From Clostridia bacterium (GTDB taxonomy: Bacteria; Bacillota; Clostridia; UMGS1883), in the NCBI GenBank assembly GCA_045638945.1, contig JAZUCF010000024.1:93275-157274 (forward strand): a stretch of DNA of 64,000 nucleotides, given 5' to 3'. The position numbers and the translations under genes were made by a program. The notes under the pieces were generated by a model. It searched no databases, was not told where the DNA came from, and was given only the letters and a program-made list of their open reading frames with translations. Below are positions 3,839 through 20,544 of this stretch, in pieces (within the stretch, counting starts at the first letter, position 1; each line of letters opens with the position of its first letter).

Positions 3839-3841
3839 ACC

Positions 3842-5071: not shown

Positions 5072-5566
5072 TTAATCAATTTCCCCATAAAACCACAGTA
5101 TTGTTTTATGTGTAAAATCTGAATCGACAATTGTTTCATAATAGCCTTTCTCTTTAAGGGGTGATTCAATGTGTCGTTCTTGAATAAATGACATACCTTG
5201 TTTGACAATTGGGTTCCAAGTTTGCTCAGTTGTATTTCTTAACCAAAAAGAATTATAATAGTTTTCATCATAGAAAATAATAATTTGTGACTCCCCAAAG
5301 TTCAACTCGTCAATAACTGCAACCACTTTGCAAAAAGCCAGACTATTAGGTTTGTGCTCGATAATTTCAGCAGTTTTATCAAGCCAAGCTTTGCAAAATG
5401 CGGTTTTTATTTTTCCACTCGTTTTCGGAGATGTAATAAACTGACTAAACGGAACGTGAAAATGTTCGTATTTATAGTCTGTATTTTGAAAAGGACATAT
5501 TTGATTTATGTTATTAAGCAGAACTCTTAATTTTCGTTTTTGTCCTCTTTGCTTTTTATATTTCAT
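5072..5566 (-). CDS. Hypothetical protein (164 aa)
   Basis: Clean ORF with RBS (GAGGTGAG) upstream of the ATG. AT-rich. Basic N-terminus (KKQRGQKRKLR). No family recognised. Confidence 0.5.
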   Translation of the reverse strand: MKYKKQRGQKRKLRVLLNNINQICPFQNTDYKYEHFHVPFSQFITSPKTSGKIKTAFCKAWLDKTAEIIEHKPNSLAFCKVVAVIDELNFGESQIIIFYDENYYNSFWLRNTTEQTWNPIVKQGMSFIQERHIESPLKEKGYYETIVDSDFTHKTILWFYGEID

Positions 5567-5708
5567 ATATACTCACCTCGTTTACCAAGTTCTTATTCTA
5601 TAACTACTTATACGAATAGGAAAGTGGATAAAAAGTTATAAATTACTATTATAGTATAGCATACTTTTACTCATTTGTCACGATATAGAGATAAAATTAA
5701 CAAAATTA

Positions 5709-5945
5709 TTAACTTAACATACCTTTTAAGTCAAAGGATATAGGCTTATCTTTGAACTTGTTAAGCGGTATCTTTTTAGCCTGATTGGATAACAGAGTGA
5801 TTATATCATAGGCTTGTTCAATATAAGGCTTGTGCTTATTCTTCTCAACCCAATAGAAGAGTGCCAAGTAATAATCAAGAAACTTTGAAGATACACCATG
5901 ATAAACAAGTAAAAAATGCAAGCAATCACATGAGATTGCTTGCAT
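5709..5945 (-). pseudogene. Probable C-terminal remnant of an IS1595-like (ISXO2-type) transposase
   Basis: The 78-aa ORF contains YHGVSSKFLDYYLALFYWVEKNK, resembling the conserved C-terminal G(V/I)S.K.L..YL..F motif of that transposase family. No catalytic region. It abuts the stop of the neighbouring gene. Confidence 0.4.
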
Positions 5946-5963
5946 TTTTTACTACAGGAAACT

Positions 5964-7154
5964 TTACAGTTTTAATTTCTTTTCTTTAAGTTTTTTTGTT
6001 ACAAATTCTTTTAAAAGAACATATACCACCGAGAACACGGGAACACCTATCAGCATTCCCACAACACCATATGCATTTCCGCCCACAGTTACTGCGGCAA
6101 GTACAAGTATGCCGGGAAGTCCGATTGATTTTCCCACAACTTTCGGATAAATGAAGTTTCCCTCAATCTGTTGAAGCACGAGGAAAAATATAATAAACCA
6201 AAAAGCCTGCATGGGGCTTACAATCAAAATCAGGAATGTTCCCGCTATAACCCCTATCCACGCACCGACAACAGGGATAAGTGCTGTTGCCGCAACAAGC
6301 ACGGAAATCACAACTGCATACGGGAATCTGAAAATCAACATTCCTATAAAACACATAACTCCTAAAATAACGGCTTCTGCAAACTGTACAGTTGCAAAGC
6401 GTGTAAAGGTTTGATTGACAAGAGTAAATACAGACATTGTTTTATCGGAAAACTTTTTCGGGAATATCGCATACAGCAATTTTTTTGAACAAATGCAAAG
6501 CGTTTCCTTTTGTGCCAACATGTAAAAAGCAAACACAGCCGCCAATACAAAATTAATTATTCCTGAGAAAAGCGAGGTAGTAAGGGAATAGGTCGTACTA
6601 AAAAAGTTCATCCCGAATTTGGGGAGCATTTTTCCTAACTTTGAAAGTAAATCCATATTATCAACCGATGCAAAATCAGAAAAGCTTACCCCTATGTCGC
6701 TTAAAAAGACTTTCAGATTCTGAAAAGTTCCGCCCAATGAATCAAAATATTTGGGAAGAAGGGTTATGAGAGAGTCGGCTGTCTGTATAAAAGCAGGAAG
6801 TATAAGGAACAGAATAGCAAAAATTACCGTCAGTACTAATACGATACTTAAAAACATGCACATAGTTCTTTTTATAAAGAACTTCGGTTTGTGCTTTTTG
6901 AAAATCTTGTCCCACAAATTTTCCAGCGGCCGCATAAACAAATTGAGGATAAAGGCAATTACAAAACCGTAAAAAATCGGCAGAATGAGCGAAATGATTC
7001 TGCCTGCAAAATCAAAAATACTCCTGATATTGTCAAGTGTCCAGAATAATAAGAGTGCAAAGGTTATGGCAAAGATAACCAGTGCAAATTGTGAACGCAG
7101 TTTCGGAAAATTACTGCGGGTTGCGGATTCTTTTTTTTCTTCCAATTTAGCCAT
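5964..7154 (-). CDS. AI-2E family transporter (PerM/YtvI-like, UPF0118)
   Basis: 396 aa, polytopic. Family signature region QQIEGNFIYPKVVGKSIGLPGILVLAAVTVGG. Confidence 0.85.
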   Translation of the reverse strand: MAKLEEKKESATRSNFPKLRSQFALVIFAITFALLLFWTLDNIRSIFDFAGRIISLILPIFYGFVIAFILNLFMRPLENLWDKIFKKHKPKFFIKRTMCMFLSIVLVLTVIFAILFLILPAFIQTADSLITLLPKYFDSLGGTFQNLKVFLSDIGVSFSDFASVDNMDLLSKLGKMLPKFGMNFFSTTYSLTTSLFSGIINFVLAAVFAFYMLAQKETLCICSKKLLYAIFPKKFSDKTMSVFTLVNQTFTRFATVQFAEAVILGVMCFIGMLIFRFPYAVVISVLVAATALIPVVGAWIGVIAGTFLILIVSPMQAFWFIIFFLVLQQIEGNFIYPKVVGKSIGLPGILVLAAVTVGGNAYGVVGMLIGVPVFSVVYVLLKEFVTKKLKEKKLKL

Positions 7155-7292
7155 TTAGCATCACTCCATATGTGGATAATATAGCATTTTCCATCCAATG
7201 TCAATATAATACAGCTAATATTTACCAATTCGACATAATTAGAATAAAAACCCGAATGCATATTTTAATCAATGCATTTGGGTTTTGTTAAT

Positions 7293-7973
7293 TTATTTTG
7301 CTTTGTTTTGTTTGCGGTGCGTGCTTTTTAAATAGAGCTTATAAATTCCGATGCCTATTATGGAAATTATGGCGATTATTCCGTACGTAATCAAAAGTGT
7401 TTTAAACTTGCTTTCGGCAAAGGCATCACCTGCATAGGTAGAGGACATTACCGTGGGAATCCTTGCAATAAGAGTAATGAGAAGAAAATCCCTAAGACTT
7501 ATGGAAGTAAAAGGAGCCGCATATGTAAGCAAGTCCTTAGGTGTGCCTGGGACGAAAAATAGCAAAAATATAACCCTCTTAAGCTTTTTTTCATCCTTTA
7601 AAAACTTTATCTTGTTCATTGCGGAGCTTCCTGCGGCGGCTTCAACGAAGTCTTTGCCAAAGGTTTTTACCAGTTTAAAAATTATTGTCTGACCAATGGT
7701 GATGCCGGTAAGGCATACTAAAAGTCCCCCTATCCAGCCGTACATACTGCCTGCAACAAATTCGATAAGCTCGCCCGGAATCAGAGCAACGACAATCTGT
7801 ACTATCTGGATAAACAGCATCATAAAAATGCCCAATATACCGAACCTATCAATAAATGCCTCAAACTGCTCAGGCTGTCGGGCGGACTGTATAAACGGTA
7901 TTGCAATTACTGTTAAAACAGCCATTGCAGCAAAGAATAATATAATTGAAATGTATTTGTAAGCTTTTTTCAT
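7293..7973 (-). CDS. TVP38/TMEM64 (DedA-related) family membrane protein
   Basis: Motif FVPGTPKDLLTYAAPFT plus multiple TM segments. I prefer the ATG at 7973 (MKKAYKY), preceded by GAGGTG, over the track start at 7991. Confidence 0.8.
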   Translation of the reverse strand: MKKAYKYISIILFFAAMAVLTVIAIPFIQSARQPEQFEAFIDRFGILGIFMMLFIQIVQIVVALIPGELIEFVAGSMYGWIGGLLVCLTGITIGQTIIFKLVKTFGKDFVEAAAGSSAMNKIKFLKDEKKLKRVIFLLFFVPGTPKDLLTYAAPFTSISLRDFLLITLIARIPTVMSSTYAGDAFAESKFKTLLITYGIIAIISIIGIGIYKLYLKSTHRKQNKAK

Positions 7974-8054
7974 AAAACACCTCATATACAACTTTCAGTA
8001 TACAGGGAAAATATGAAAAATTCAATTGTTTTGTCGAAAATTTTTTGAAATGTA

Positions 8055-8288
8055 TCAAAAATCGTGACAGGGCATAGAGTCAATGTTGTGTTTTTCAAAC
8101 AAAAGAACTATGTTTTCAACTTTTTCAAAATCGGTGGTTTCACCATTTTTAATGATATCTTGAATCTGTTGTAAAACTTCAATAGCAACTGTGTTTACAA
8201 TTTCATCGGCATTGATTTCAAAATCATTTATGTGGAAGAGGATATAGTCGGAAATGTGCTTTTTTAATATTTCTGTTTTAATTGTCAT
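8055..8288 (-). CDS. Small acidic hypothetical protein (77 aa)
   Basis: ORF with RBS (GAGGTGAAAC-ATG), divergent from the XRE pair. No family recognised. Confidence 0.5.
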   Translation of the reverse strand: MTIKTEILKKHISDYILFHINDFEINADEIVNTVAIEVLQQIQDIIKNGETTDFEKVENIVLLFEKHNIDSMPCHDF

Positions 8289-8404
8289 AGTTTCACCTCG
8301 AAATTTAAATTTGTATCACTTTTACAACCGATTGTAGCATAATTTAATAGTAAAATCAATACGATAAGTGTAAAAAATGAGACAAATTTAATTGTGGTGA
8401 TTTT

Positions 8405-8650
8405 ATGAAACAAAGAGTTAATTCCAATGGAAAGAATTTAATCGGTGAAAGACTAAAAGAATTGAGGAATAATGCACATTTATCCCAAAGAGATTTAGCC
8501 AGAGAATTGCAACTTATCGGCATTGATATGGATAAGAACGTTATTACTCGTATCGAAACCAATAAGAGATATGTTGCAGACTTTGAATTACAAGCACTTA
8601 AGAAAATTTTCAAGGTAAGCTATGATTTTCTGATTGACGGGGAAGAGTGA
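8405..8650 (+). CDS. XRE-family helix-turn-helix transcriptional regulator
   Basis: 81 aa. IGERLKELRNNAHLSQRDLARELQL...ITRIE is a classic HTH_3 pattern. Confidence 0.8.
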   Translation: MKQRVNSNGKNLIGERLKELRNNAHLSQRDLARELQLIGIDMDKNVITRIETNKRYVADFELQALKKIFKVSYDFLIDGEE

Positions 8651-8853
8651 CTTTAATGGTTTTTAAACGATTATATGAACTAAGAGTTGACAATGACTTA
8701 ACTCAACAGCAGGTTGCAGATTATTTACTTTGTAACCGTCAGGTATATGCACGGTATGAAAAAGGTATCAGGGAAATTCCCGTTTCAATGCTGATAAAAC
8801 TGACAAAGCTATATAATGTATCGGCAGATTATATTTTAGAAATTAATAGTTGA
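8647..8853 (+). CDS. XRE-family helix-turn-helix transcriptional regulator (second, overlapping copy)
   Basis: LYELRVDNDLTQQQVADYL...VYARYEKGIREIPVSMLIKLTKLYNVSADYIL. The likely true start is the ATG at 8656. It overlaps or abuts the stop of the upstream XRE gene. Confidence 0.8.
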   Translation: MTLMVFKRLYELRVDNDLTQQQVADYLLCNRQVYARYEKGIREIPVSMLIKLTKLYNVSADYILEINS

Positions 8854-8870
8854 AGTGGCCGCGTTCCCCT

Positions 8871-8926
8871 CGGTTCCACCAAAAAATAAAGCACCCATCA
8901 GGGTGCTTTATTTTTTGGTGGAACCG
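8871..8926. terminator. Perfect 26-bp-arm palindrome acting as a bidirectional intrinsic terminator
   Basis: cggttccaccaaaaaataaagcaccc - atca - gggtgctttattttttggtggaaccg. The inner GC stem is flanked by A6/T6 on both strands. It sits between the + strand XRE operon and the - strand DUF4062 unit. Confidence 0.75.
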
Positions 8927-9214
8927 AAATATACTTTCACATTTTCACTAATCATCATTATTTGTTAGTGTAATTCTATGGTAGCGGTCACTTGGAAACT
9001 AGCATTTCAAAATGGATTTTGGTGTCTGCCTTGCCCTTGCCGTGACTGCCGATTCGGACTTGACGAATTCTTCGTTCTTCTGTCGGTGGAGAGGAGTGTG
9101 TGCCGACCTTTTCAAAATTTCTTCGGTGGAATGACAAAATCCGTCGCCTTGTGTGGCAACAGTCTTGTTTGTGTAGTGGACGTGTCTCTCCCTTTCAGGA
9201 CTCCTACAATTGCA

Positions 9215-10159
9215 TTATTTTTCAACAACATCACTTGGCTCAAGACCATTTTCGCTAATAATATCAAGAATACGATTTCTTACATTATCATAATCATTTT
9301 TCATCCTTGACATACATGCTTTCGTGCATTCGTATGGCGGCCCTCCATATGTTATAGAAACACCTTCCGCGTCATTTACACAAATTTGTCCGTTACATAT
9401 ATCATCTAAAGTTTCATTATGTATTATTGTGTATGGAGAAACTTTAATTCCCCAAGTTTCCAAATCCTGAATAGCCCTGCTCTCTATCATTACCTCATAA
9501 CATTTTATCAAAACATTAGTAATATTATCTCCAGTATTTACGGCAAGCTGCTTGGTATAATATTCTATTTTTTCTGTCGCCGCGTGTATTACTTCAAAAA
9601 GCTCTGAGACTTTCCTCGACTCGATACTGTTAGTTAAAAAATTACACATCATTCCTGCCCATTGTTTCTTTAAGTATGCTTCAATATTGTTGAAATCAGC
9701 AAATGGCATGATAGCATTATTTGAACTGTTTTTTCGCACTTCATCTATAAATTCAAATATTTTTATATTATCGACACTTGGGTATATAATATCTTTTGTT
9801 TTAGGATTATCTTTGTTTTTCTGATATACATAATGTTCATTCAACACACTTTGTTCAACAAGAGTAAAGACAGGCAGTTTTTGTTTAATAGCCTCTTCAT
9901 ATTCTTTATTAGTAATTGACTTATCTTCATGATGATAGGCACCGCCAAATCTTCCGCCAATAATCAATACAAATATTTGACAATTTGAAACCTCTGCCAA
10001 ACAGGAATCATGAGTGTGAGTTCCTGGATTATAAAACACATCACCATCTTCACTCAAAACAGCCTCATATCCCACATTGTTAATGAAATACTTTATGTTT
10101 TCTCGTATGTATTTTAAATCGTAGCATGTTGAACTAACAAATACTCTTGGAATAGCCAT
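9215..10159 (-). CDS. DUF4062 (TIR-like) domain protein with an unrecognised C-terminal domain
   Basis: 314 aa. N-terminus VFVSSTCYDLKYIRENIKYFINNVGYEAVLSE...CLAEVSNCQIFVLIIGGRFGG matches my memory of the DUF4062 signature. RBS GGAGG lies 7 nt before the ATG. Confidence 0.65.
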   Translation of the reverse strand: MAIPRVFVSSTCYDLKYIRENIKYFINNVGYEAVLSEDGDVFYNPGTHTHDSCLAEVSNCQIFVLIIGGRFGGAYHHEDKSITNKEYEEAIKQKLPVFTLVEQSVLNEHYVYQKNKDNPKTKDIIYPSVDNIKIFEFIDEVRKNSSNNAIMPFADFNNIEAYLKKQWAGMMCNFLTNSIESRKVSELFEVIHAATEKIEYYTKQLAVNTGDNITNVLIKCYEVMIESRAIQDLETWGIKVSPYTIIHNETLDDICNGQICVNDAEGVSITYGGPPYECTKACMSRMKNDYDNVRNRILDIISENGLEPSDVVEK

Positions 10160-10192
10160 TACGATACCTCCACAATGTTTTTCGACAAAATT

Positions 10193-10221
10193 ATTATATC
10201 ATGAAAATGTCAGTATGGCAA
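10193..10221 (-). promoter_or_regulatory. Near-consensus sigma-A type promoter for the DUF4062 gene
   Basis: Minus strand reads TTGCCA - 17 nt - TATAAT, about 30 nt upstream of the RBS. Confidence 0.55.
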
Positions 10222-10290
10222 ATATTTTATACAATTTTATCCAATTATGACGCAAAGCCGTCGCTCTGTGTGCAACGGCTTTACGTTTTT

Positions 10291-11793
10291 CTATGCTCCT
10301 TTTTTATGTTCCTCAGATGTTTTGATAGTTACTTCTACTTTGTCTCTGTAGACAACAATTTCTTTTACGAAACTGCGAATAAGTTTTCTACACATAGGTA
10401 AATCATGCTTTAACATGAATTCTTTAAATATCTTTTTAGTATTATCTATATCATCAGAATTAACAGCCTTAGGCTTGTAATTCTTGTAGTAGTCATATTT
10501 ATTTTCTAATGTCATTTTCTTTTTTTCAAGAGCAATAAGCTTATTAATTATAGCTTCTGAATTATTGGTTTTTTCTATTACCTCTGTCAATCTATTGATT
10601 GAAAAATCAAGCTGAGTCAATTCATTTTTAACACGGATTGTATTAGTGCTATTTTTAGACTTATCTTTATTGAACTTTTTATCGAGAGCTTTTATTAAGT
10701 ATTTATAATTTTTTTCATCAAATATTATATCAGTGAGCAAATCAAGAATATAGTTATCCAGATAACTAAGATTGATGGCTTTATTGCAACAATCACCTCT
10801 ATAACCACCACATCTGTATGTTATATATTCGGTTTTATTTCTCCCTGCATAACTGGTGTTACCTGAAAAGGCTTTTCCGCACTCTCCGCAGACAACTAAG
10901 CCATTTAACAGATAATATCTCTTGCTGTGAAACCTACCTGCATTTTCTTTATTAAGCTTAGCTTTCTCAATAGCTTTTATGTATATATCATCAGATATTA
11001 TGCGAGGGATTCCGTTTGCAATCTTAATTATTTCATTTTCATCTTTGTACTTATGAGAATTGCGAGTACCATCAATGAACTTAGGTGCTGCTCTATTATA
11101 AATATACGTACCTGTATAACGCTCTGCATTATCAAGAATAGAACTGAAAGAATTCTTATTGAAAGGCAATCCTTTTTTAGTGGTGTAACCATGATTATTG
11201 AGGTAGTCAGCAATATTTTGATACGAATAATCATTAATATACATATCAAATATGAGTTTAACTGCCTTGCTTTCCTTTTTGTTGATTACATATTTTCTAT
11301 TCTCATCTACGTCATATCCGTAGGGAGGAACGCCCCCTGTATGCAATCCCTTGTATGCAACTTCTTTTTTTCCTTTCTGAACTTCTCTTCCAAGGTTTTT
11401 ACTATAAAATTCATTCATTGCAAATATCATGCTTTCAAGCATTTCGCTTTCGGGAGTATCATCTAAAGGCTCAATTACGCTTATGAGCTTTATTCCTTTT
11501 TTCTGCAAAAAACACTTATAGGAATATGAATCAATTTTGTTTCTTGCAAATCTATCTAATTTGTGAACTATTACGGCATATACATTTGAATTAGCAACAT
11601 CTTTCATCATTTGCTGAAACTGAGGTCTGTCATCTGTTGTTGCAGATTTAGCTTCATCAACATATTCGCCTTTAATTTTATATCCTTTTTCTTTACAGTA
11701 TTGTTCTATTGCTCTACGTTGAGCTTCTATTGACTCTTGTTTTTGCATGGTGCTTGAATAACGAAGATAAATATATACCATTTTAGTTGGCAT
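10291..11793 (-). CDS. Large serine recombinase (resolvase/invertase N-domain + recombinase domain + zinc ribbon)
   Basis: 500 aa. YLRYSSTMQ (catalytic Ser context), VHKLDRFARN, GGVPPYGY, CGECGKAF...YRCGG zinc ribbon, and a coiled-coil C-terminal region. Confidence 0.9.
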   Translation of the reverse strand: MPTKMVYIYLRYSSTMQKQESIEAQRRAIEQYCKEKGYKIKGEYVDEAKSATTDDRPQFQQMMKDVANSNVYAVIVHKLDRFARNKIDSYSYKCFLQKKGIKLISVIEPLDDTPESEMLESMIFAMNEFYSKNLGREVQKGKKEVAYKGLHTGGVPPYGYDVDENRKYVINKKESKAVKLIFDMYINDYSYQNIADYLNNHGYTTKKGLPFNKNSFSSILDNAERYTGTYIYNRAAPKFIDGTRNSHKYKDENEIIKIANGIPRIISDDIYIKAIEKAKLNKENAGRFHSKRYYLLNGLVVCGECGKAFSGNTSYAGRNKTEYITYRCGGYRGDCCNKAINLSYLDNYILDLLTDIIFDEKNYKYLIKALDKKFNKDKSKNSTNTIRVKNELTQLDFSINRLTEVIEKTNNSEAIINKLIALEKKKMTLENKYDYYKNYKPKAVNSDDIDNTKKIFKEFMLKHDLPMCRKLIRSFVKEIVVYRDKVEVTIKTSEEHKKGA

Positions 11794-11971
11794 TTTGTTT
11801 TAACTCCTTTCTTCTGTGTTTTTTAATGATTTTATAAATTACAGGAATATGAGTTTTCAAACCGATTTTATCTTTTTTTGTGCCTTCTAGAATAGTAATT
11901 TTAGAATGTTTGTATTTACTATTATATAGCATTTTTCTGTCGATTGTATATTTGGCAATCAAACTAATCAC
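11783..11971 (-). CDS. Small basic hypothetical protein (62 aa), overlaps the recombinase start
   Basis: ORF with a TTG start, lysine-rich, 11-nt overlap with the downstream recombinase ORF. Weak support only. Confidence 0.3.
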   Translation of the reverse strand: MISLIAKYTIDRKMLYNSKYKHSKITILEGTKKDKIGLKTHIPVIYKIIKKHRRKELKQNAN

Positions 11972-11998
11972 CCCCTCTCATTGCCAAATACTGTATTA

Positions 11999-12397
11999 TT
12001 ATTCGATTTTTATAAATGCGGTCATAGTATCTTTAATTTTTTTGATTTTCACATTGCAAAAGGACATAGAAGTTCTTTCACTAAAATCGAGTTCAAATGC
12101 ATTGGCTATGTATTCTACCAAGGCAGCATTATAGACGATTCCTTTACCCTTGTTGGATACACTATAATTATTGTCAGCACCTTCAATACTCTCTGCAATT
12201 ATCAAATAACCATGTTCAACATCATCAGCAAGGTTAATTAAATCAGGATTTCCCAATTCTTCATATAAGCTTTTTGACATAGTAAGTCTTTTGCCGTTTT
12301 CACAAAGCACTAATGAAATTGAGTGAGTTGATTTTCCTCCTTTCTTATTAGATACGTTGATTGCCTTAGCATTAGCTAAGATTTCATGTGCTTTCAT
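11999..12397 (-). CDS. Hypothetical protein (~132 aa)
   Basis: ORF packed between the primase and recombinase genes on the same strand. I prefer the ATG at 12397 (MKAHEIL). No family recognised. Confidence 0.5.
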   Translation of the reverse strand: MKAHEILANAKAINVSNKKGGKSTHSISLVLCENGKRLTMSKSLYEELGNPDLINLADDVEHGYLIIAESIEGADNNYSVSNKGKGIVYNAALVEYIANAFELDFSERTSMSFCNVKIKKIKDTMTAFIKIE

Positions 12398-12445
12398 AGC
12401 ACACACTTCCTCTCTTTTTTATATTTTAAATAATGGTACTATTAT

Positions 12446-13873
12446 TTAATTCGTAATTAAATCATCACTATTATCTTGATATGGTAAATTCGACTTGCAA
12501 TAGCTTGTACAATCTAAAGGTCTATGTTTTTTCAAGGAAATCCCCATAACCCTTCTATCGCAACCCGATTTCTTTATGGTAATATCCTTCTGACCTGTTT
12601 TTATTTTGAATAACTGTCTAAAATACATCCAAAACCTACTAGTTGTAATACGAGAATAATTAGTGTGATTATTTGCACTACACCAACTTTGAAATGCAAG
12701 GAAAATAGCTTTCTTTGTTTCCCATACACACATATCCTCAGATGTACTAACGAAAATGCATTCGTTCCAAAATGCCTCAAATGGATTAGACATAGTTATA
12801 TATTGATTCTTTAACTTTTCAATTTTCTTTGATTTTGTAAATTTATAGTCTCTGGACTCAAGCCTGTCAAGACCTCTTATTGCAAAATTAAATATACCAG
12901 ACAGTTCTTTCTTTAATTTTTTCTCTAGATGAATATCTGCAGTTCCGTCTTTAATTGAAAACTGCTTTTCAAATGGAATTATCATAATTCTACGATAGAA
13001 GCCATCTGAAATGTCCTTGAATTGAGGTAGAGTATTGGTGCTGAATATTAATTTGCAGAAAGGTTTAAACGAAAATACATCTTTACCCTTAAATTCTGCT
13101 GATATTGCATCACCACCTGTTATAGCTTTTAAATACTGTGTATCTACAACCTGACCACTATAGCTTTCGTTTTCGGTTGATATATTAACTAATTTATCTA
13201 ATAAAACTGATTTAGTAAATCTTTTAGAAAAATCTCTGATAGCTACAGTTGAGCAGTTACTATCTCCAATCAATGCCATAATCACATTGCATAATACCGA
13301 CTTTCCATTTGCTCCTGTACCAAAAAACAAGAAGAAACACTGTGCTGCATTTTCCTTTGTCATTAAGTAACCCAAAAGTTCCTGAATCACCTTTATTATC
13401 GCTTTATTGTTATCAAATACACTTTTCAAAAACTCAAAAAAATGTGGACATCTAGCCTTCTCATCATAAATTATAGGGAGTTGAACTGTGCAATAATACT
13501 TGGGACTATGTGGAATAAGTTTTTTGTTCTTTAAATCGTACATTCCATTTTTCAGACAGATTAAATCTTTATTTTTATTGAAATTACCACCATAAAACGC
13601 TATTCTCTTTAATGCAGTAAAATAAAATTCCTCAGCCTTTTTATTAAATGCATCGGGGAAAGAGGTTTGAAGAATGATTCTTGCCATAAAAGCTTTTAAT
13701 CTATCCTCCGAAATTTCCTTATAGACTCCGTTATGATACCTATAAAACTTTCCGTTACTTGCACAAATAATCTTATACTTTTTGTGTATATAGCGTGCAA
13801 ATGCATTGCTATTTAGATAAATTATACCTTTATCTGTTCTTCTGAAACCCATTTCTTTTTCTTCTTTAGTCAT
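12446..13873 (-). CDS. Phage/plasmid primase, P4 family (D5-like SF3 helicase/NTPase domain)
   Basis: Walker A FFLFFGTGANGKSVL, Walker B-like region, FKPFCKLIFSTN. I prefer the start at 13873 (MTKEEKEMGF), because the track's N-terminal extension runs through a palindromic operator and promoter. Confidence 0.85.
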   Translation of the reverse strand: MTKEEKEMGFRRTDKGIIYLNSNAFARYIHKKYKIICASNGKFYRYHNGVYKEISEDRLKAFMARIILQTSFPDAFNKKAEEFYFTALKRIAFYGGNFNKNKDLICLKNGMYDLKNKKLIPHSPKYYCTVQLPIIYDEKARCPHFFEFLKSVFDNNKAIIKVIQELLGYLMTKENAAQCFFLFFGTGANGKSVLCNVIMALIGDSNCSTVAIRDFSKRFTKSVLLDKLVNISTENESYSGQVVDTQYLKAITGGDAISAEFKGKDVFSFKPFCKLIFSTNTLPQFKDISDGFYRRIMIIPFEKQFSIKDGTADIHLEKKLKKELSGIFNFAIRGLDRLESRDYKFTKSKKIEKLKNQYITMSNPFEAFWNECIFVSTSEDMCVWETKKAIFLAFQSWCSANNHTNYSRITTSRFWMYFRQLFKIKTGQKDITIKKSGCDRRVMGISLKKHRPLDCTSYCKSNLPYQDNSDDLITN

Positions 13874-13945
13874 AATAATTTCCCTACCTTTGTTAGTTTC
13901 TTTTCTAATTTGTACCATCATTATATCATTTAAATTTCTTATTAG

Positions 13946-13993
13946 GTCGCAAACTTGCGACAAATTGACAATTATTGTTTGCTATGATATTAT
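13946..13993 (+). promoter_or_regulatory. Palindromic operator plus consensus-like promoter in the divergent region
   Basis: GTCGCAA-ac-TTGCGAC (13946..13961) lies immediately upstream of TTGACA (13965..13970) - 17 nt - TATTAT (13988..13993), reading toward the 166-aa gene. Confidence 0.5.
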
Positions 13994-14017
13994 AAAAAAA
14001 TAGGGAGTGGTTTTATA

Positions 14018-14518
14018 ATGCAATCAATAACAAATCGAAAAGATGATTTCCTTAAAAAATTAGATATTTATTTGCTTGAAACAGAAAATGAACGTAGTGG
14101 TGGCTTTGGTTCAACAGGTGTTTCTTTTTATAATAAATTAAGCAATTACATAGAAAAAGAATCACCAAAAAATTTTAAAGAGGAAATGTTAAAACACATT
14201 GATGAATATAAGAATAGAACAGGAAATAATGAGGTAGACTTATACAAAAAAGCACAAGTTGATAGACGAAGTTACTCAAGATTTCTTATAACAGGAACAT
14301 TACCAAAAAACGATATTATATGTTATTGTGTTGCACTTGAGTTAAACGAAAAAGAAACAAAAGAACTTCTTAGTTTGGCAGGTCACTCATTAGGTGATAG
14401 TAAATTTGATAGGATAATAGAATTTTGTATTAAGGAAAAATGTTATGATATTGATGATATAAATGAAGCACTGTTTCATTACAATCAAAAACTTTTAGGA
14501 GTTCAAAGAAATATATAG
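14018..14518 (+). CDS. Hypothetical protein, possible HTH-like DNA-binding region
   Basis: 166 aa with RBS GGGAGTGG. The segment VDRRSYSRFLITGTLPKNDIICYCVALELNEKETKELLSLAGHSL resembles short HTH-type regulators of Firmicutes mobile elements. Weak call. Confidence 0.5.
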   Translation: MQSITNRKDDFLKKLDIYLLETENERSGGFGSTGVSFYNKLSNYIEKESPKNFKEEMLKHIDEYKNRTGNNEVDLYKKAQVDRRSYSRFLITGTLPKNDIICYCVALELNEKETKELLSLAGHSLGDSKFDRIIEFCIKEKCYDIDDINEALFHYNQKLLGVQRNI

Positions 14519-14554
14519 TAAATAAAATAAACTTAACTATATATCATATTAATG

Positions 14555-14596
14555 AAAGCCAATAGGTAACTGTACACCTATTGGCTTTTAATATTT
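14555..14596 (+). terminator. Intrinsic terminator after the 166-aa gene
   Basis: aaagccaataggt / acctattggcttt 13-bp stem followed by a T-rich tail. Confidence 0.7.
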
Positions 14597-14615
14597 CTAT
14601 GAAAGGATGATTAAA

Positions 14616-16190
14616 ATGAATCTAAGCTATGTTTTAAAGGTTGTTCTGTATGCTCGGTTTTCTTCTGACCTGCAGCGTTCAGAAAGCATTGATGCACAAG
14701 TGCGTGCAATGAAGAAGTACTGCGAGCAACACGGAATGCAGATTGTTGACATCTATGTTGACGAGGCAAAGTCTGCAACCACAGACAAGCGACCTTCTTT
14801 CCAAAGGATGATTGAGGACAGTAAAAAGCACATCTTTCAAGGGGTTGTAGTTCACAAGCTTGACAGATTTGCAAGAAACCGCTACGATTCCGCTATGTAT
14901 AAGAGAACACTCAAACTCAATGGTGTTAGAGTGTTCAGTGTGCTTGAAAATCTTGATGACTCACCTGAATCTATAATGCTAGAGTCACTTCTTGAAGGTA
15001 TGAATGAATACTACTCAAAAAACCTTGCAAGAGAAGTTATGAAAGGATTGAAGGAGAATGCAATTCAGTGTAAGCATACAGGTGGTGTACCGCCATTAGG
15101 CTACTATGTTGACGAAAACAAACATCTTGCAATTAACGAAAGAGAAGCGGAAGCAGTAAGAATTATATTTGATATGTTTTCAAAAGGATATTCTTATGAT
15201 GAAATCACATCAAAGCTAAATCAGGAAAAATATTACACAAAGAAAGGAAACATATTTATACGAAATTCTATTTACAGTATTCTCACAAATGAAAAATACA
15301 CAGGCACGTATGTGTTTAATAAGTCATCATCAAAAGATATGAACAACAAAAGAAATTCGCATAAATATAAGGATGATGATTTGATTATAAGAATCCCAAA
15401 CGGTTGTCCTCAAATTGTTGATAATGAAACATTTGAAAAAGTTCAGCAAAGAATACTTGAAAACAAACATCTGTCGGGAATGTATAACGCCAAGCACAGA
15501 TATTTATTAACAGGATTTTTATTTTGCGGTTACTGCGGAAAGCGACTTACAGGTAACAGAAGATATGGAGGAAGAAACAAATCTCTTGCAGTTACATATC
15601 GTTGCTTAACTCACAAGGATATTTGTATCAGTAAGGAATATAACAGATTCTTTTTAGAAGATTTCGTTTTTTATCAAATCAAAGAGCATTTCGGCTATAA
15701 GTCAAAAGTTACTTCTATGTATAATAAAGTAAGTCGTTATCTAAACAAAAGCCGCAAATCTTTGCAATCAGAGTTACAAGCTCTTACTTCAAAACTGATA
15801 ACTGTTAATGAATCAATAGCAAACATTACTAAGGCTATTGAGAAAGGAATTTATAATGAAGATATACACAACAGATTAGAAGAACTCAAAGTTGACAAAG
15901 CAACTATTGAAACAGAAATATCAAAGAAATCACAATTTCAGGAAGTCAAATATACTGATGATGATATATTACAGACCTTGACCGAGTGCAAAGAGCTTAT
16001 CAGGCAACCTACTAACCCTGAAAATAGATGGTTTCTTAAAAAAGTCATTTCAAAAATTGTTCTTTATCGGGATGAAGTGCTAATTGTTCTCAAAACAGGA
16101 TTATCAGTTAATGATGAATTTGATACTGAAATAAGAGCAACAAGAAAAGAAATTTATGACTATGGAAGGAGAATAAAAAATGCTGGTTGA
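14616..16190 (+). CDS. Large serine recombinase (second copy, opposite orientation)
   Basis: YARFSSDLQ, VHKLDRFARN, GGVPPLGYY, CGYCGKRL...YRC zinc ribbon, coiled-coil tail. Clear paralog of 10291..11793. The ATG at 14616 has better spacing from AAAGGA than the track start at 14607. Confidence 0.9.
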   Translation: MNLSYVLKVVLYARFSSDLQRSESIDAQVRAMKKYCEQHGMQIVDIYVDEAKSATTDKRPSFQRMIEDSKKHIFQGVVVHKLDRFARNRYDSAMYKRTLKLNGVRVFSVLENLDDSPESIMLESLLEGMNEYYSKNLAREVMKGLKENAIQCKHTGGVPPLGYYVDENKHLAINEREAEAVRIIFDMFSKGYSYDEITSKLNQEKYYTKKGNIFIRNSIYSILTNEKYTGTYVFNKSSSKDMNNKRNSHKYKDDDLIIRIPNGCPQIVDNETFEKVQQRILENKHLSGMYNAKHRYLLTGFLFCGYCGKRLTGNRRYGGRNKSLAVTYRCLTHKDICISKEYNRFFLEDFVFYQIKEHFGYKSKVTSMYNKVSRYLNKSRKSLQSELQALTSKLITVNESIANITKAIEKGIYNEDIHNRLEELKVDKATIETEISKKSQFQEVKYTDDDILQTLTECKELIRQPTNPENRWFLKKVISKIVLYRDEVLIVLKTGLSVNDEFDTEIRATRKEIYDYGRRIKNAG

Positions 16191-16713
16191 AAAAAACATA
16201 TTAAAATCAGATTTGTCCTACAATGATGATAAGTCTAGGAGGTATTTGCTTCATATTGAATGGGACAAGACAAAGAAAAATGCGGCTATTGTTATGCTAT
16301 CAGCAGGAAAAGCAAACGGATTAGTGTTTGACCGTACTACTAATAATGTAATAGAAAATTTGGTTGAGTTAGACTACGGAAGTGTAGACATACTCAACCT
16401 TTTTTCATCTTTAGAGACCAAAATTGATGATGAAGCCGATTCAGAAAATCTAAAGATAATTGATGTTTCTGCAAAGAATGCAGACATTGTAATATTTGCA
16501 GCCGGAACAGGAAGAAAAGCAGATACGAGAGTGCAGTCACGGCAAAATGAAGTTTTAGCAAAACTTAAAAAGCACGATAAAAAATTATTCTGCATTGCAG
16601 ACAAGAACGGACAGAAATTCTACCATCCCTTATGTCCCAAGGTGAAAAAGTGGAACTTAGTTAAGTTTGATATTGAAGAATTAACAAAGAAAGGATATGA
16701 CAATGAGTATTAA
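16180..16713 (+). CDS. DUF1643-like protein
   Basis: 177 aa. RRYLLHIEWD...AAIVMLSAG...ILNLFS...FYHPL follows the DUF1643 pattern from memory. Its start overlaps the recombinase stop. Confidence 0.6.
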   Translation: MLVEKNILKSDLSYNDDKSRRYLLHIEWDKTKKNAAIVMLSAGKANGLVFDRTTNNVIENLVELDYGSVDILNLFSSLETKIDDEADSENLKIIDVSAKNADIVIFAAGTGRKADTRVQSRQNEVLAKLKKHDKKLFCIADKNGQKFYHPLCPKVKKWNLVKFDIEELTKKGYDNEY

Positions 16714-17020
16714 GCTTGGAACAAAAAAAGACCTGCGGAAGATTTGCCATTTGCCGACAAATGTGCAGAATGCAATCCGTGACGATGTCGAGGCTTTGGA
16801 TTGCTTCTATGGCGAAGGGAGGAACATTGACTCCGACATGGGTGGCTTTGTTGTTGTGTGTGGTGCAGACGAAGAGGTATGCATCCAAAATTTTGAGGAG
16901 GATTTGAGCAAGGCGGAGTTTGTGGAGGAGATTTCCTCGTTTGTCAAAGCTCTTTACATCTCAGGAACGGAAAGAAATATCATTATTTACAGAAGGAAAA
17001 AAGAAGATGGACAAACATAA
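16697..17020 (+). CDS. Hypothetical protein (107 aa)
   Basis: ORF overlapping both neighbours by a few codons (coupled). Locally higher GC. No family recognised. Confidence 0.45.
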   Translation: MTMSIKLGTKKDLRKICHLPTNVQNAIRDDVEALDCFYGEGRNIDSDMGGFVVVCGADEEVCIQNFEEDLSKAEFVEEISSFVKALYISGTERNIIIYRRKKEDGQT

Positions 17021-17327
17021 GGTCAATGGGATTTTACTTGGGAATTCAGATTTGCTAAAATATCCCTCAGAGGTGATGAATTTGGATAAGCAACTGTTTA
17101 ATTCAGTCTATAAGGAAATAGCAGAAGCCTTTGGAGTAGATGTAGCGATTCAGTTTTACCAAATGTATAAGGGTATGCAGATTTCTTTTCCTACAAGGCT
17201 TTTTAATCCCGATTATGTTCGTACTCAAATCCCCATTGAATATGACGGAACTAATATTAAGCAGTTGGCTAAAAAGTATGGGTACAGTGAAAAAACAATT
17301 AGACGAATGATTAAAGAGAATTTGTGA
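17007..17327 (+). CDS. Mor-like / CD3324-family transcriptional activator-like protein
   Basis: IAEAFGVDVAIQFYQMYKGMQISFP...IPIEYDGTNIKQLAKKYGYSEKTIRRMIKE matches the Mor-family C-terminal HTH pattern. I prefer the ATG at 17007 with the AGAAGGA RBS over the track start at 16920. Confidence 0.65.
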   Translation: MDKHKVNGILLGNSDLLKYPSEVMNLDKQLFNSVYKEIAEAFGVDVAIQFYQMYKGMQISFPTRLFNPDYVRTQIPIEYDGTNIKQLAKKYGYSEKTIRRMIKENL

Positions 17328-17336
17328 GGTGTAGTA

Positions 17337-18563
17337 ATGGCGTTAATAGATGTCGTTAAATATGAAGGTGGTCCAAATATCTTTGCTTGGAAATATCCAA
17401 ATAATGAGTTGAGTACGAAAACTCAACTTATAGTAAATGAAAGTCAGGAAGCCATTTTATTTAAAGGTGGGCAGGCATTAGACATATTTGGTGCAGGTAG
17501 ACATACTTTAGAAACAAAAAATATTCCTGTTTTAAGTAAATTGATTAATTTACCTTTTGGAGGGCAATCTCCTTTTACTGCTGAAGTATGGTTTGTAAAT
17601 AAAATTCATTCATTAGATATTAAGTGGGGAACTTCGACTCCTATTTCCTTGTTTGACCCATTTCTTATGATTGATGTCAAAGTAAAAAGCTTTGGTCAAT
17701 TTGGAATAAGAGTTGATAATTCAAGAAAGTTTTTAGAGAAACTTGTAGGTACACTTCCGATATTCAGTCAAGAAAATGTTACTGCATATTTTAAGGGTGA
17801 ATATTTGAGAAAATGCACATCTATTATAGGCTCATATTTTACTCAAAAAAATATTGGTATTTTACAAGTAAATACATACTTAGATAATTTATCAGATTTC
17901 ATAAAAGAATATATGAAAGACTTTATGGCTGATTATGGAATAACCTTGTTAAACTTCTCCGTCAATAGTGTTAATGCCGACGAGAATGACAGTAGCTATA
18001 AAGTAGTAAAAGAAGCTATGGCTGGTGCTGCTAAAACAAGATGGACAGAAGCCGCAAAAGCAGACACACAAGCATATACTACACGTCAGGTAGGTACCGC
18101 AAAAGCAGATGTTATGGGATATGAGCAAAAGCAAGCAGGTTATACTTATCAGCAAAAACGGTCATTTGATGTTATGGAAAGTGCCGCTTCAAATGAAGGT
18201 AGCGGTATGTCAAATGATTTTATGACTATGGGAATGGGGCTTGCTATGGGCAATAAAATGGGTGCAGTTGTAGGAACACAAATGGGAAATATGGCTACGG
18301 TTATGGATGTAACTGAAGATATACCTAAAACTTGTGAAAAATGCGGAGCATTATTAAACAGCAATCAAAAATTTTGCAGTAATTGCGGAGCAGATGCACA
18401 ATTAACCAATCAAGCAAAGTGTGTTAGTTGCGGAAGATTACTTGATGTCAATAGCAAGTTTTGTCCTGAGTGCGGAGCTTCTCAAATTAAACAATGCCCT
18501 GAATGTAAAACCGAAATTAAAGGAACTCCTAAATTCTGCCCTGAATGTGGAAATAAGCTTTAA
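17337..18563 (+). CDS. SPFH/band-7 domain protein of the YdjI/COG4260 type with three C-terminal zinc ribbons
   Basis: 408 aa. N-terminus IDVVKYEGGPNIFAWKYP...LIVNESQEAILFKGGQ...GAGRHTLETKNIPVLSKL...PFGGQSPFTAEVWFVNK...KWGT. M/G/A-rich linker. Three ribbons: CEKCG-x-CSNCG, CVSCG-x-CPECG, CPECK-x-CPECG. Confidence 0.8.
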   Translation: MALIDVVKYEGGPNIFAWKYPNNELSTKTQLIVNESQEAILFKGGQALDIFGAGRHTLETKNIPVLSKLINLPFGGQSPFTAEVWFVNKIHSLDIKWGTSTPISLFDPFLMIDVKVKSFGQFGIRVDNSRKFLEKLVGTLPIFSQENVTAYFKGEYLRKCTSIIGSYFTQKNIGILQVNTYLDNLSDFIKEYMKDFMADYGITLLNFSVNSVNADENDSSYKVVKEAMAGAAKTRWTEAAKADTQAYTTRQVGTAKADVMGYEQKQAGYTYQQKRSFDVMESAASNEGSGMSNDFMTMGMGLAMGNKMGAVVGTQMGNMATVMDVTEDIPKTCEKCGALLNSNQKFCSNCGADAQLTNQAKCVSCGRLLDVNSKFCPECGASQIKQCPECKTEIKGTPKFCPECGNKL

Positions 18564-18575
18564 GGTGGTGCTTCA

Positions 18576-19238
18576 ATGAAAAATAAGAAATCTATTTTAA
18601 TGATTGGTGGAATAACTCTATTTATAACTCTTATTATATTTCTTCTTGGAATAGATAAGGGGAAAAGAACTATTGACTACATCTCTTTTTTATTCATCGT
18701 ATTAGGCGAATGTATAACATTTGGTACTATGGCATTTTACAAGCAACCTACAATGATTTCAAATCTTTCAATATCATCAATTATGCCTGTTTATCTGGTG
18801 ATAAATATTCTTTTTTCGCTATTGTTTAAAAATGCATTTGCCGATAACATTTCAGCTTTTACAGTGATTCATATTGTGTTAATTTCTATTCTTACTATAT
18901 TAATTATTTTTTTAAGCGGATTGTTAAATGAGATTAATAAGGATGAAGAAAACACAATAAGACAAAAAGCCGTTATTGACGAGTGTGAACGAGTAGCACA
19001 AATACTTATGCTTAACAGTAAGTATGAAAATCATCGTACAAAATTAAATAAAATTTATGATGATATTAAATATTCAGACCATATATCTGATTATAAAAGT
19101 TCAGAAATATTGTCAGCACTAAATTCAATTTCAGTATGTACTGATGAAAACGAAATAGATGCTTTATGTGAGCAGACAATTCAATTAATTCAGGATAGAA
19201 ATATTACTGTCAATCAGCTAAAAAGAGGGGGATTTTAA
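18576..19238 (+). CDS. Four-TM membrane protein with a ~100-aa helical cytoplasmic tail
   Basis: 220 aa. Four hydrophobic helices in the first ~115 aa, then a charged helical tail. Starts 12 nt after the SPFH gene, with RBS AAGGTGG. Confidence 0.6.
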   Translation: MKNKKSILMIGGITLFITLIIFLLGIDKGKRTIDYISFLFIVLGECITFGTMAFYKQPTMISNLSISSIMPVYLVINILFSLLFKNAFADNISAFTVIHIVLISILTILIIFLSGLLNEINKDEENTIRQKAVIDECERVAQILMLNSKYENHRTKLNKIYDDIKYSDHISDYKSSEILSALNSISVCTDENEIDALCEQTIQLIQDRNITVNQLKRGGF

Positions 19239-19239
19239 T

Positions 19240-19779
19240 ATGGACAAGAAAATAGAGAAAATGATAAATACATTTAAACCTAATCAAAGAGAAAAACTGT
19301 TAAAGCAAATTGCACCGAAAAGAGGTTTTACTACAGGGGCTATTTTAGGGTACGCACTGGGAGTTTGGGCTTCAGGCATTATTTTTATTCCGCTTGGTTT
19401 AGAATTTGTTGGAATATTGACTGGCATAGTTTGTGCTACGATAGGAGGAACATTTTTTGAAAAACATAATGCAAAACAAAGGGAATATTTTTCTATGATA
19501 GACAATCATAGGATTTTATCAATAGACCAAATCGCTTCGTCATTGTCAGTATCTTACGAACAAGCAAGAAAAGATATAAATAAAATGATAGAAAAAGGAT
19601 TTTTTGGAAACGCTCATATTGATAATGTAACTCGTTCGATAGTTCTTCCTATAAGTGGTGTCGATATTAACACTGAAGTTACAACAATCAATAAAACATG
19701 CCCCTCTTGCGGAGCAACAAATAATGTATCTTCACTTGGTGAAAACAAATGTGAATATTGTGGAACAATCTTAGATTAA
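19240..19779 (+). CDS. Two-TM membrane protein with a wHTH-like segment and a C-terminal zinc ribbon
   Basis: 179 aa. TM helices GAILGYALGVWASGIIFIPLG and FVGILTGIVCATIGGTFF; SIDQIASSLSVSYEQARKDINKMIEKGF; CPSCG-x13-CEYCG. Starts 1 nt after the upstream stop, with RBS AGAGGGGGA. Confidence 0.6.
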   Translation: MDKKIEKMINTFKPNQREKLLKQIAPKRGFTTGAILGYALGVWASGIIFIPLGLEFVGILTGIVCATIGGTFFEKHNAKQREYFSMIDNHRILSIDQIASSLSVSYEQARKDINKMIEKGFFGNAHIDNVTRSIVLPISGVDINTEVTTINKTCPSCGATNNVSSLGENKCEYCGTILD

Positions 19780-19795
19780 TTACTTAATAACGGAT

Positions 19796-19830
19796 AAAAG
19801 CTATGAGGACATTTCTCATAGCTTTTGTTT
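19796..19830 (+). terminator. Intrinsic terminator ending the long + strand operon of the element
   Basis: aaaagctatgag / ctcatagctttt 12-bp stem, 7-nt loop, T-rich tail. Confidence 0.75.
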
Positions 19831-20047
19831 ATGCAAAGGAGTTGAGAAAAATGCAATATACATTATTAGGTTTTGGTTTGACACTCACAATATTACTGAC
19901 TATCGAATCAATTAACAAAGAAAGGGCGTGAAGAAAATGATGTTTTTGGTTGGGGCAACAACGTCTGCGTTTTTGACCTCGTTCAGCGAGGGTGCGATGC
20001 TCGCTGCAACTGTTTACCTTGCGACAAAGGGTGTCAAGCGGAGATGA

Positions 20048-20136
20048 GGACAGTTTGAGGGCAGATTTTGGACAGTTCGAAAACCTCAGACGTCAGTATG
20101 TACCTGCCTTTGGACAAGTGGACAAGTTAGGGCAGA
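20048..20136 (+). repeat. Direct repeats GGACA(A)GTT(T)(G)AGGGCAGA x2 plus two extra GGACA(A)GT half-copies
   Basis: ggacagtttgagggcaga at 20048..20065, ggacagtt at 20070..20077, ggacaagt at 20112..20119, ggacaagttagggcaga at 20120..20136. Non-coding and GC-rich, at the right edge of the element. Confidence 0.7.
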
Positions 20137-20154
20137 CATAGCTTGTTATATAAG

Positions 20155-20196: not shown

Positions 20197-20544
20197 TGGT
20201 GGAGCCGAGGGGAGTCGAACCCCTGTCCGAAAACATATTCACACAGGCATCTCCGAGCGCAGTCACTTATTAAAAATTCCCTCCGCCGCAAGGCAAGTGA
20301 CAGCCCAAGCGGTTTTGGTAGCTTCATTCGTCATGCATGGTGCAAAGCTTAACCATGTCACGTTCACCACTGTGTGACGCTCTTATCCCGACCGTGGTCC
20401 TTCAGGTAAGAACGGCTGCACTAATTAGGCAGCGTAAGCTAAATTATTGTTAGCGTTTAAATTTAAAAATTGGGATTTTAACGCAGTTCCCGCTGCGGCT
20501 CGCTTCCCATGCTTCAACATCCCCGTCGAAACCGGTACGGCCCC
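20197..20544 (-). ncRNA. ssrA: tmRNA (transfer-messenger RNA)
   Basis: Sense 5' end GGGGCCGTACCGGTTTCGACGGGG. 3' end GGACAGGGGTTCGACTCCCCTCGGCTCCACCA (T-arm, acceptor, CCA). Internal tag frame GCT AAC AAT AAT TTA GCT TAC GCT GCC TAA = ANNNLAYAA* (20425..20454). Adjacent to smpB. Confidence 0.93.

Follow-up and report, generated by a model that had tools for sequence, protein, structure and literature searches.

SPFH proteins of the Band_7_1 type are common in bacteria, and YdjI (SamI) of Bacillus subtilis is, to our knowledge, the only studied relative, with the focus there being placed on its link to PspA. Besides the Band_7_1 domain, YdjI, which is devoid of transmembrane (TM) segments, contains a low-complexity linker and one zinc ribbon or finger (PMC8581546; PMC11237479). 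It is recruited by the membrane proteins SamG and SamH (YdjG and YdjH), which are, in turn, restrained by it, PspA being dispensable for that phenotype; loss of SamI when SamG and SamH are present is deleterious in B. subtilis (bioRxiv 10.64898/2026.02.06.704340). YdjG is built of two N-terminal zinc ribbons, an NTF2-like (YpeB-related) domain and a TM segment (PMC11237479). In the following, a three-gene operon (g1, g2 and g3, collectively the triad) is described, which lies in a 64,000-nucleotide stretch of DNA of a Clostridia bacterium (GenBank assembly GCA_045638945.1, contig JAZUCF010000024.1, positions 93,275 to 157,274 of the forward strand), referred to as the window, and which encodes a Band_7_1 SPFH protein and two membrane proteins. 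The triad is a widespread, mostly chromosomal operon with a housekeeping-like distribution. With slightly more confidence than doubt, it is read here as a PspA-independent membrane scaffold or sensor complex, ancestrally chromosomal, of which a derived mobile cassette, linked to a gene of the Mor family, is found in the window.

The three genes are on the + strand: g1 (17337..18563) encodes a soluble SPFH protein of the Band_7_1 type (408 aa), g2 (18576..19238) a membrane protein of 220 aa with four TM helices and a cytoplasmic helical bundle ending in RGGF, and g3 (19240..19779) a protein of 179 aa in which a TM hairpin is followed by a PCI-like winged helix and, at the C-terminus, by a zinc ribbon (CPxCGA...CEYCG). 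The intergenic gaps are of 12 nt (g1-g2) and 1 nt (g2-g3), and purine-rich Shine-Dalgarno-like sites are found 7-9 nt 5' of g1, g2 and g3 (GAGGTG, AAGGTGG and GAGGGGGA, in this order). The operon is closed by an intrinsic terminator (19792..19830, + strand), the hairpin of which has a folding energy of -20.7 kcal/mol (z = -6.0; none of 200 shuffled sequences folds as well), and which is absent from the list produced by a simple consensus scan. The coordinates, the gaps, the separate ribosome-binding sites and the strong terminator given in a preliminary description of this DNA are, therefore, confirmed, as is the domain make-up that it had proposed for each of the three proteins, namely a YdjI/COG4260-type SPFH domain followed by linker and three ribbons in g1, four TM helices and a helical tail in g2, and two TM helices, a stretch resembling a winged helix-turn-helix and a terminal ribbon in g3.

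The g1 product matches the Pfam family Band_7_1 (PF13421) over residues 18-214 with E = 3.8e-42 (144.7 bits, the gathering cut-off being 24), which places the coding region of the SPFH domain at ~17388-17978 (+ strand). Further downstream, a Gly/Met-rich low-complexity linker (~18192-18314, + strand, residues 286-326) and exactly three CxxC-x10-CxxC zinc ribbons (18333-18548, + strand, residues 333-350, 362-379 and 387-404) are encoded, and matches to the double-zinc-ribbon (DZR/Zn_ribbon) families of Pfam are also found. No TM or hydrophobic segment is present, the maximal Kyte-Doolittle value in a 19-residue window being 0.95. Conservation of the SPFH domain is strong, 111 columns being invariant across 23 diverse g1 sequences, and the typical homologue is ~432 aa long, ~45% identical to the g1 of the window and equipped with five ribbons. 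When PDB sequences were searched with the g1 profile, the matches were confined to the zinc-ribbon part.

The partners belong to less familiar families. In g2, hydrophobic segments are found at residues 7-25, 36-54, 66-84 and 95-113, and the AlphaFold2 (AF2) model, with a predicted local distance difference test (pLDDT) value of 84, shows four TM helices followed by the cytoplasmic helical bundle; a Foldseek comparison of the model with the PDB returned nothing at E < 0.1, with generic helical proteins only. The g2 family counts 1150 representatives at 50% identity, nearly all of the best 150 of which are ~210-255 aa long, and is without a Pfam model. In g3, a hydrophobic hairpin (residues ~34-72) precedes the winged helix and the single CPSCG...CEYCG ribbon at residues 154-174, which is the invariant part of the family. 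Its Pfam matches (HTH_DeoR, PCI, Zn-ribbon) are weak, and so are the top Foldseek matches of its AF2 model (pLDDT 74), i.e. PCI winged helices of the proteasome lid, the COP9 signalosome (CSN) and eIF3, with E = 0.03-0.3, and also MarR-type ones. Homologues of g3 bear no functional names; the rare fusions found in the family are with DUF2207, Sel1/TPR or MORN, which are interaction modules and not enzymes or toxins. Indeed, an effector-type (enzymatic or toxin) domain was found neither in g1, g2 and g3 by Pfam nor in the g3-family fusions, and scans of the triad proteins against NCBIfam and PHROGs gave nothing informative.

The likeness to SamGHI is evident: in both cases a TM-less Band_7_1 SPFH protein with a linker and C-terminal ribbon(s) is encoded beside two membrane proteins, a CPxCG-type zinc ribbon being present in one of the pair. 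The differences are, however, several. The gene order is reversed, the SPFH gene being the first in the window; g1 has three ribbons (and most of its relatives five) as opposed to the one described for YdjI; YdjH/SamH contains a TPM domain and a low-complexity segment or coiled coil, whereas g2 consists of four TM helices and a helical bundle; g3 has its TM hairpin at the N-terminus and a single ribbon at the C-terminus, together with the PCI-like winged helix, so that only the ribbon motif resembles YdjG; pspA belongs to the B. subtilis operon, but was never linked to the triad in the loci examined; and, as far as promoters can be compared across distant species, a sigma-W-type signal was not found 5' of chromosomal relatives of the triad. 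That g2 could be the orthologue of YdjH, or g3 that of YdjG, was considered and rejected, since the TPM_phosphatase domain gave no Pfam match at E <= 0.1 in g2 (nor in g3) and g3 has no NTF2-like domain. The g1 protein is a distant paralogue of YdjI. In view of the differences in partners, gene order and pspA, it is filed as a Band_7_1 protein and the operon as a variant of the SPFH-plus-membrane-partner theme rather than as a SamGHI orthologue.

A looser parallel is offered by the SPFH-NfeD pairs and by HflK/C-FtsH (e.g. QmcA-YbbJ, FloA/FloT with YqeZ/YuaF, the HflKC cage), in which an SPFH scaffold likewise comes with a membrane partner of its own and presumably builds large oligomers that organize clients on the cytoplasmic membrane. 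The SPFH proteins of these systems are self-anchored in the membrane and belong to Pfam Band_7 (PF01145), whereas g1 is TM-less and matches the latter family weakly (E = 0.0075); NfeD or FtsH domains gave no Pfam match in the triad partners.

Homologues of g1 are numerous. At E <= 1e-5, 5493 were found in the protein collection, and at least 588 genome stretches with confirmed relatives were obtained in a scan of one genome per species; among the matches listed, Clostridia, Tissierellia, Erysipelotrichales, Paenibacillus and others are represented. In order to establish the gene context, open reading frames (ORFs) were called in 80 species-representative loci and in previously fetched contexts, and searched with g2 and g3 profiles, the triad being counted in the 83 loci, from species-representative genomes and metagenome contigs, in which enough downstream DNA was available. 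The order g1, g2, g3 is present in 63 of these 83 loci and at least one partner in 78, with g2 immediately 3' of g1 in most of them and additional g3 paralogues being common. A recombinase is found within 10 kb in only three of the 80 species-representative loci, and Mor, DUF1643 and D5_N within the same distance in none. The genes rpsF-ssb-rpsR precede the triad in Lachnoclostridium phytofermentans and Anaerocolumna jejuensis; the families of neighbouring genes are otherwise heterogeneous. All three proteins can be aligned between island and chromosomal copies, and although g2 and g3 of the window are only 22-23% identical to those of L. phytofermentans, common motifs are retained, g2 ending with R......K.GG[FI] and g3 containing C.xCGA...CEYCG. 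Viral occurrences are rare: a profile scan of IMG/VR found relatives on five of 2.9 million viral contigs and a scan of the same collection for close relatives found none, a search of phage genomes gave only matches of ~23% identity in small unannotated contigs; a search of plasmids gave a 36% identical relative on Butyrivibrio pNP21, where g2 and g3 are absent. The composition of the triad is, therefore, not peculiar to mobile elements, although the preliminary description had presented it as mobile-element cargo.

The absence of PspA, on the other hand, holds well beyond the window. In the window itself, phmmer with Escherichia coli PspA found nothing, and none of ten ORFs compared with Pfam, 188-259 aa long and lying beyond the limits of the triad-bearing island, matched PspA_IM30. 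In other genomes, PspA_IM30 was in none of the Pfam-annotated contexts retrieved (nine look-ups) and did not reach two members in a set of 90 neighbours of matching size, drawn from 46 loci. It was anticipated that the proposal of a self-contained module without PspA, which these results bear out, would fail if homologous triads turned out to be core-genome operons always linked to pspA: one half of this was found, since the triads are conserved chromosomal operons, yet they are not pspA-linked. The general unit would seem to be the core of SPFH protein and membrane partners rather than PspA. Searches for a link to known defence systems were equally negative, in agreement with the earlier remark that a defence system of this composition is not known to have been described: with PADLOC-DB v2, the matches to g1 (E = 0.0067) and g3 (E = 0.0036) are at chance level and g2 has no match at all, and full-text searches turned up no SPFH-based defence system and no description of the triad operon.

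What sets the copy of the window apart is the gene that precedes it. Mor-family proteins are middle/late activators in Mu-like phages. A gene for a transcription activator of this family, of 106 aa from the ATG at 17007 (17007..17327, + strand), matches Pfam PF08765 with E = 7.8e-11 (42.4 bits, gathering cut-off 24.9) and a PHROG annotated as 'late transcriptional activator', and its stop codon lies 9 nt 5' of g1. As with Mor and C of phage Mu and the late activators of phage satellites, a small Mor-family DNA-binding protein is encoded just ahead of putative target genes; in contrast to those cases, the gene is co-oriented with the triad at a distance of 9 nt, and its neighbours are not morphogenesis or lysis genes. 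In a separate instance, a 374-aa protein from a metagenome contig (P0021) has Mor (PF08765) and Band_7_1 annotated in a single ORF, which is either a genuine Mor-SPFH fusion or an artefact of read-through or frameshift.

All copies 63-95% identical to the g1 of the window form one clade in a neighbour-joining tree, inside which none of the 80 species loci falls and where island copies take both basal and crown positions. Eight contexts from this clade were inspected, and six are small integrative islands (the window, L001, L096, L007, L008 and L092). Tyrosine integrases are found near tRNA-Trp in L007 and L008, and L092, adjoining tRNA-Ser, has a tyrosine integrase, D5_N and defence-like cargo. 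The Mor gene is directly 5' of g1 in five of the six islands (the window, L001, L007, L008 and L092); in L096 it is retained, but is split from a decayed triad by an insertion sequence (IS). In this last locus (5579-12452), an IS240-family transposase and extra genes lie between Mor and g1, g2 is truncated (151 aa), g3 is broken, and a 16-aa Mor remnant is seen just 5' of g1. The two other contexts, L003 and L094, are chromosomal and without Mor remnant or island gene, and are nested inside the mobile clade.

The cassette has changed carriers. The window copy sits on a backbone with serine recombinases, and L007 is an island with a tyrosine integrase; the two are 94% identical in Mor, 95% in g1 and 89% in g2, and only 57% in DUF1643. 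Since Mor, g1 and g2 are highly similar, while DUF1643 is divergent and the integrase families differ, the Mor-triad cassette must have passed from one type of island backbone to another. The terminator 3' of the triad is also kept in L007. Beyond it, two small hydrophobic ORFs of 26 aa (19851-19931, + strand; MQYTLLGFGLTLTILLTIESINKERA) and 36 aa (19937-20047, + strand; MMFLVGATTSAFLTSFSEGAMLAATVYLATKGVKRR) accompany the cassette. Their protein sequences are conserved in L001, L007 and L008, and they could code for small membrane peptides or represent type-I-toxin-like genes. Across the island family, the triad is constant and the defence-like genes are variable. An example is L092, where genes for Amidoligase_2 and GATase (6855-8891) lie 5' of Mor, and those for a VbhA-like antitoxin, a Fic protein and an 810-aa SMC_N/AAA_15 protein (12563-16174) 3' of the triad; an AbiH gene is found beside L008.

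A distant lineage of the operon (43% identity) has also been met in a mobile setting. The prophage-like contig L098 (IMG/VR UViG_3300005201_000285, 2162-20029) encodes two serine recombinases, a repressor of the HTH_3 type, an exonuclease of the YqaJ type and an SNF2 helicase. Flanked by the repressor gene on one side and by the early recombination genes on the other, a weakly Mor-like gene is followed, in this order, by g1, g2, an ORF of 295 aa, another g1 paralogue and g3. It would seem that a mobile element has acquired the operon here on a separate occasion.

On these grounds, a working model of the scaffold or sensor complex can be outlined. The integral membrane proteins g2 and g3 would act as receptors that recruit the soluble, oligomerizing g1 to the cytoplasmic face of the membrane, with contacts probably established through the C-terminal ribbon array of g1 and the ribbon and winged helix of g3. 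The g1 assembly would then organize or restrain its membrane partners, as SamI does with SamG and SamH. The ancestral role would be a chromosomal function of Bacillota, whereas the window copy belongs to a derived, monophyletic mobile lineage that has gained the Mor gene directly upstream. The mobile cassette consists of Mor-g1-g2-g3 together with the terminator and the two small hydrophobic ORFs, and circulates among small integrative islands at tRNA and tmRNA (transfer-messenger RNA) genes. On the island of the window, it would most likely serve membrane homeostasis or membrane protection as an accessory module, expressed jointly with the recombinase operon.

Several points weigh against this model. 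The interactions that it proposes derive from gene order and analogy and, since g2 and g3 are not homologous to YdjH and YdjG, g1 is the single point of contact with SamGHI; there, the identity of g1 to YdjI is ~25%, a figure to be taken as a lead only, since the YdjI sequence used was unverified, an exact look-up not having found it. The ribbon count of g1 does not follow the count of g3 paralogues (rho = 0.11, p = 0.36, n = 74), and the idea of a match between the two was dropped. In the 200 nt 5' of 77 relatives, no enriched TGAAAC-N15-18-CGTA, other extracytoplasmic function (ECF) or sporulation-type motif was found, promoters across distant species being hard to compare; a stress-response role is left without regulatory support, because no sigma-W/ECF-type motif is enriched upstream of the chromosomal copies. 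Finally, there are hints that the mobile lineage has a role in conflict or one specific to the element, namely the constancy of Mor, the recurrent capture by islands and by the prophage-like L098, and the defence-like neighbours, i.e. DUF4062 in the window, Mrr/NTase/Fic in L001, AbiH in L008 and Amidoligase/GATase with Fic and SMC_N in L092.

The carrier itself is an AT-rich integrative island with approximate borders at 8865..20150, as judged from the GC profile and Pfam matches, the GC content being 31-34% over ~9-20 kb and ~40% or more in the rest of the window. From left to right, it contains the gene for a 314-aa protein with an N-terminal DUF4062 domain (9215-10159, - strand), large serine recombinase 1 (10291-11793, - strand), a D5_N/DUF5906 primase-helicase (12446-13963, - strand), large serine recombinase 2 (14607-16190, + strand), a DUF1643 gene (16180-16713, + strand, Pfam E = 1.7e-24) and a 107-aa ORF that overlaps the neighbouring ones (16697-17020, + strand), before the Mor gene is reached. 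Both recombinases have the Pfam architecture Resolvase, Recombinase and Zn_ribbon_recom. From 14607, the start of recombinase 2, to g3, adjacent genes overlap or are separated by no more than 12 nt, and this tight packing fits a single operon, though it is no proof of one. Of the two parts of the earlier claim, the AT-rich element is, therefore, borne out, and the transcriptional fusion of the triad to a serine recombinase operon is compatible with the gene arrangement. Among the annotated island genes, no capsid, packaging or conjugation/transfer genes were found.

The right end of the island, with the triad, abuts the terminator at the 3' end of the tmRNA gene ssrA (20197..20544, - strand; ARAGORN, and Rfam RF00023 with 163.6 bits), beyond which smpB and the gene for RNase R are found. 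The preliminary description, accurate as to the triad, had overlooked this tmRNA gene, which marks the integration site, along with the Mor gene and the nature of the island. L001 and L096, which come from metagenomic genomes, share the serine-recombinase/D5_N/DUF1643 backbone of the window, and all three adjoin ssrA. The slot beyond serine recombinase 1 differs among them, with DUF4062 in the window and an Mrr-type endonuclease, NTP_transf_2 and Fic in L001 (465-2362), and looks like a hotspot for defence cargo. When direct attachment-site repeats of the ssrA 3' end were sought, the sole copy met was a 17-nt one (16/17; TCCCCTCGGTTCCACCA) at 8865-8881 (+ strand), in inverted orientation relative to ssrA. 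Part of it is shared with a perfect palindrome/terminator of 27 bp (arms 8870-8896 and 8901-8927), which is situated at the left border of the AT-rich stretch. An old attachment site may have left this copy behind; no counterpart was found within 10 kb in L001 and L096, and an Rfam scan around 8865-8927 gave spurious hairpin matches only. At the opposite end, motifs of the GGACA(A/G) type recur at 20048-20140 (e.g. TTGGACAAGTGGACAAGTT), in the interval that separates the small ORFs from the ssrA terminator; L001 has a counterpart (TTGGACGGGTGGACGGGTT), and the motifs may be binding sites for the recombinases.

The ccr gene complex of the staphylococcal cassette chromosome (SCC) comprises large serine recombinases, a primase-helicase and DUF1643 (PMC10581047). 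The island shows the same set, its two large serine recombinases being accompanied by a primase-helicase and DUF1643, and has no transfer genes of its own, so that the carrier can be called SCC-like. It differs from SCC in being located beside ssrA rather than in rlmH, in the divergent arrangement of its recombinase genes around the primase (they are adjacent in SCC), in the host, a Clostridia-like genome of 40% GC, and in its cargo, the Mor-triad cassette. Furthermore, no matches to SAUGI and DUF960 were seen on the island and, for want of these and of the rlmH site, it is regarded as SCC-like and not as SCC.

Among the alternatives, the best placed, and yet an unlikely one, is that the Mor-triad cassette is an anti-phage module acting by superinfection exclusion or abortive infection. 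The SPFH protein could hold g2 and g3, and perhaps the small peptides, in check until perturbation by a phage releases them, a reuse of the 'brake' logic of SamI as an abortive switch; or the complex could block entry of phage DNA or holin action at the membrane. The defence-like genes in other slots of the islands (the window, L001, L008 and L092) and the exchange of the cassette between unrelated backbones, as often observed with defence cargo, agree with such a role, and in L098 the place of the triad, between repressor and early recombination genes, is the typical position of a moron. However, in the islands it is the triad that is constant and the defence-like genes that vary, which is the reverse of the usual pattern of defence cargo, and the family is overwhelmingly chromosomal, strongly conserved, not near recombinases and almost never carried by phage genomes; moreover, no PADLOC model matches g1, g2 or g3, no SPFH-based defence system emerged from the full-text searches and no effector domain was found. 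A defence or exclusion role for the island triad is possible, and a new defence mechanism has no support so far.

A broader formulation, which is held to be rather unlikely, takes Mor-g1-g2-g3 and the small ORFs as a new membrane-acting conflict system, in which an SPFH oligomer would guard or brake its membrane partners. Cast, with similarly little expectation that it is right, in terms of regulation, Mor would switch the system on in small helper-dependent islands so as to exclude or abort phages or rivals, the whole having been recruited from a housekeeping operon for membrane surveillance, in a manner similar to the origin of other immune modules from stress systems.

It is improbable, in turn, that the cassette serves the life cycle of the island, with a Mor-induced complex that aids transfer, hijacks a helper phage (e.g. 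through the timing of lysis or through sites of replication and packaging at the membrane) or keeps competing elements out. The membership of Mor in a family of Mu-like middle/late activators, its position directly 5' of g1 in five of six islands (the sixth, L096, being split by the IS) and in none of the 80 species loci, and the cassette being the conserved core across integrase types would all suit this proposal, as would the combination of integrase and primase-helicase with no capsid, packaging or conjugation genes, which is reminiscent of helper-dependent satellites or SCC. Against it, induction or transfer of the islands is without evidence, Mor is probably co-transcribed with the triad (9-nt gap) and not placed ahead of a recognizable target promoter, and L003 and L094 persist in the chromosome with neither Mor nor island genes, which implies that the triad works without an island.

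Very improbable is, lastly, an addiction module of the toxin-antitoxin kind, with g2 and g3 or the small peptides as membrane toxins neutralized by the SPFH protein, which would accord with the deleterious loss of SamI in the presence of SamGH and with the resemblance to type I toxins of the 26- and 36-aa ORFs 3' of the terminator, conserved in four islands, but is at odds with chromosomal triads that are stably inherited without the small ORFs, with the length and strong conservation of all three proteins, unlike typical toxin-antitoxin pairs, and with L096, whose island backbone persists though the triad has decayed.

As to its significance, the triad represents a large and strongly conserved PspA-less SPFH operon of Clostridia, Paenibacillus and relatives, with partner families that have neither a Pfam model nor a described function. 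That a membrane operon of the housekeeping type was taken up along with a Mor gene, and moves between SCC-like and tyrosine-integrase islands, makes it a case in which to ask how an SPFH scaffold benefits a mobile element. Were the mobile lineage defensive, it would represent a new mechanistic class; otherwise, it provides an entry point to a conserved operon that is as yet uncharacterized.

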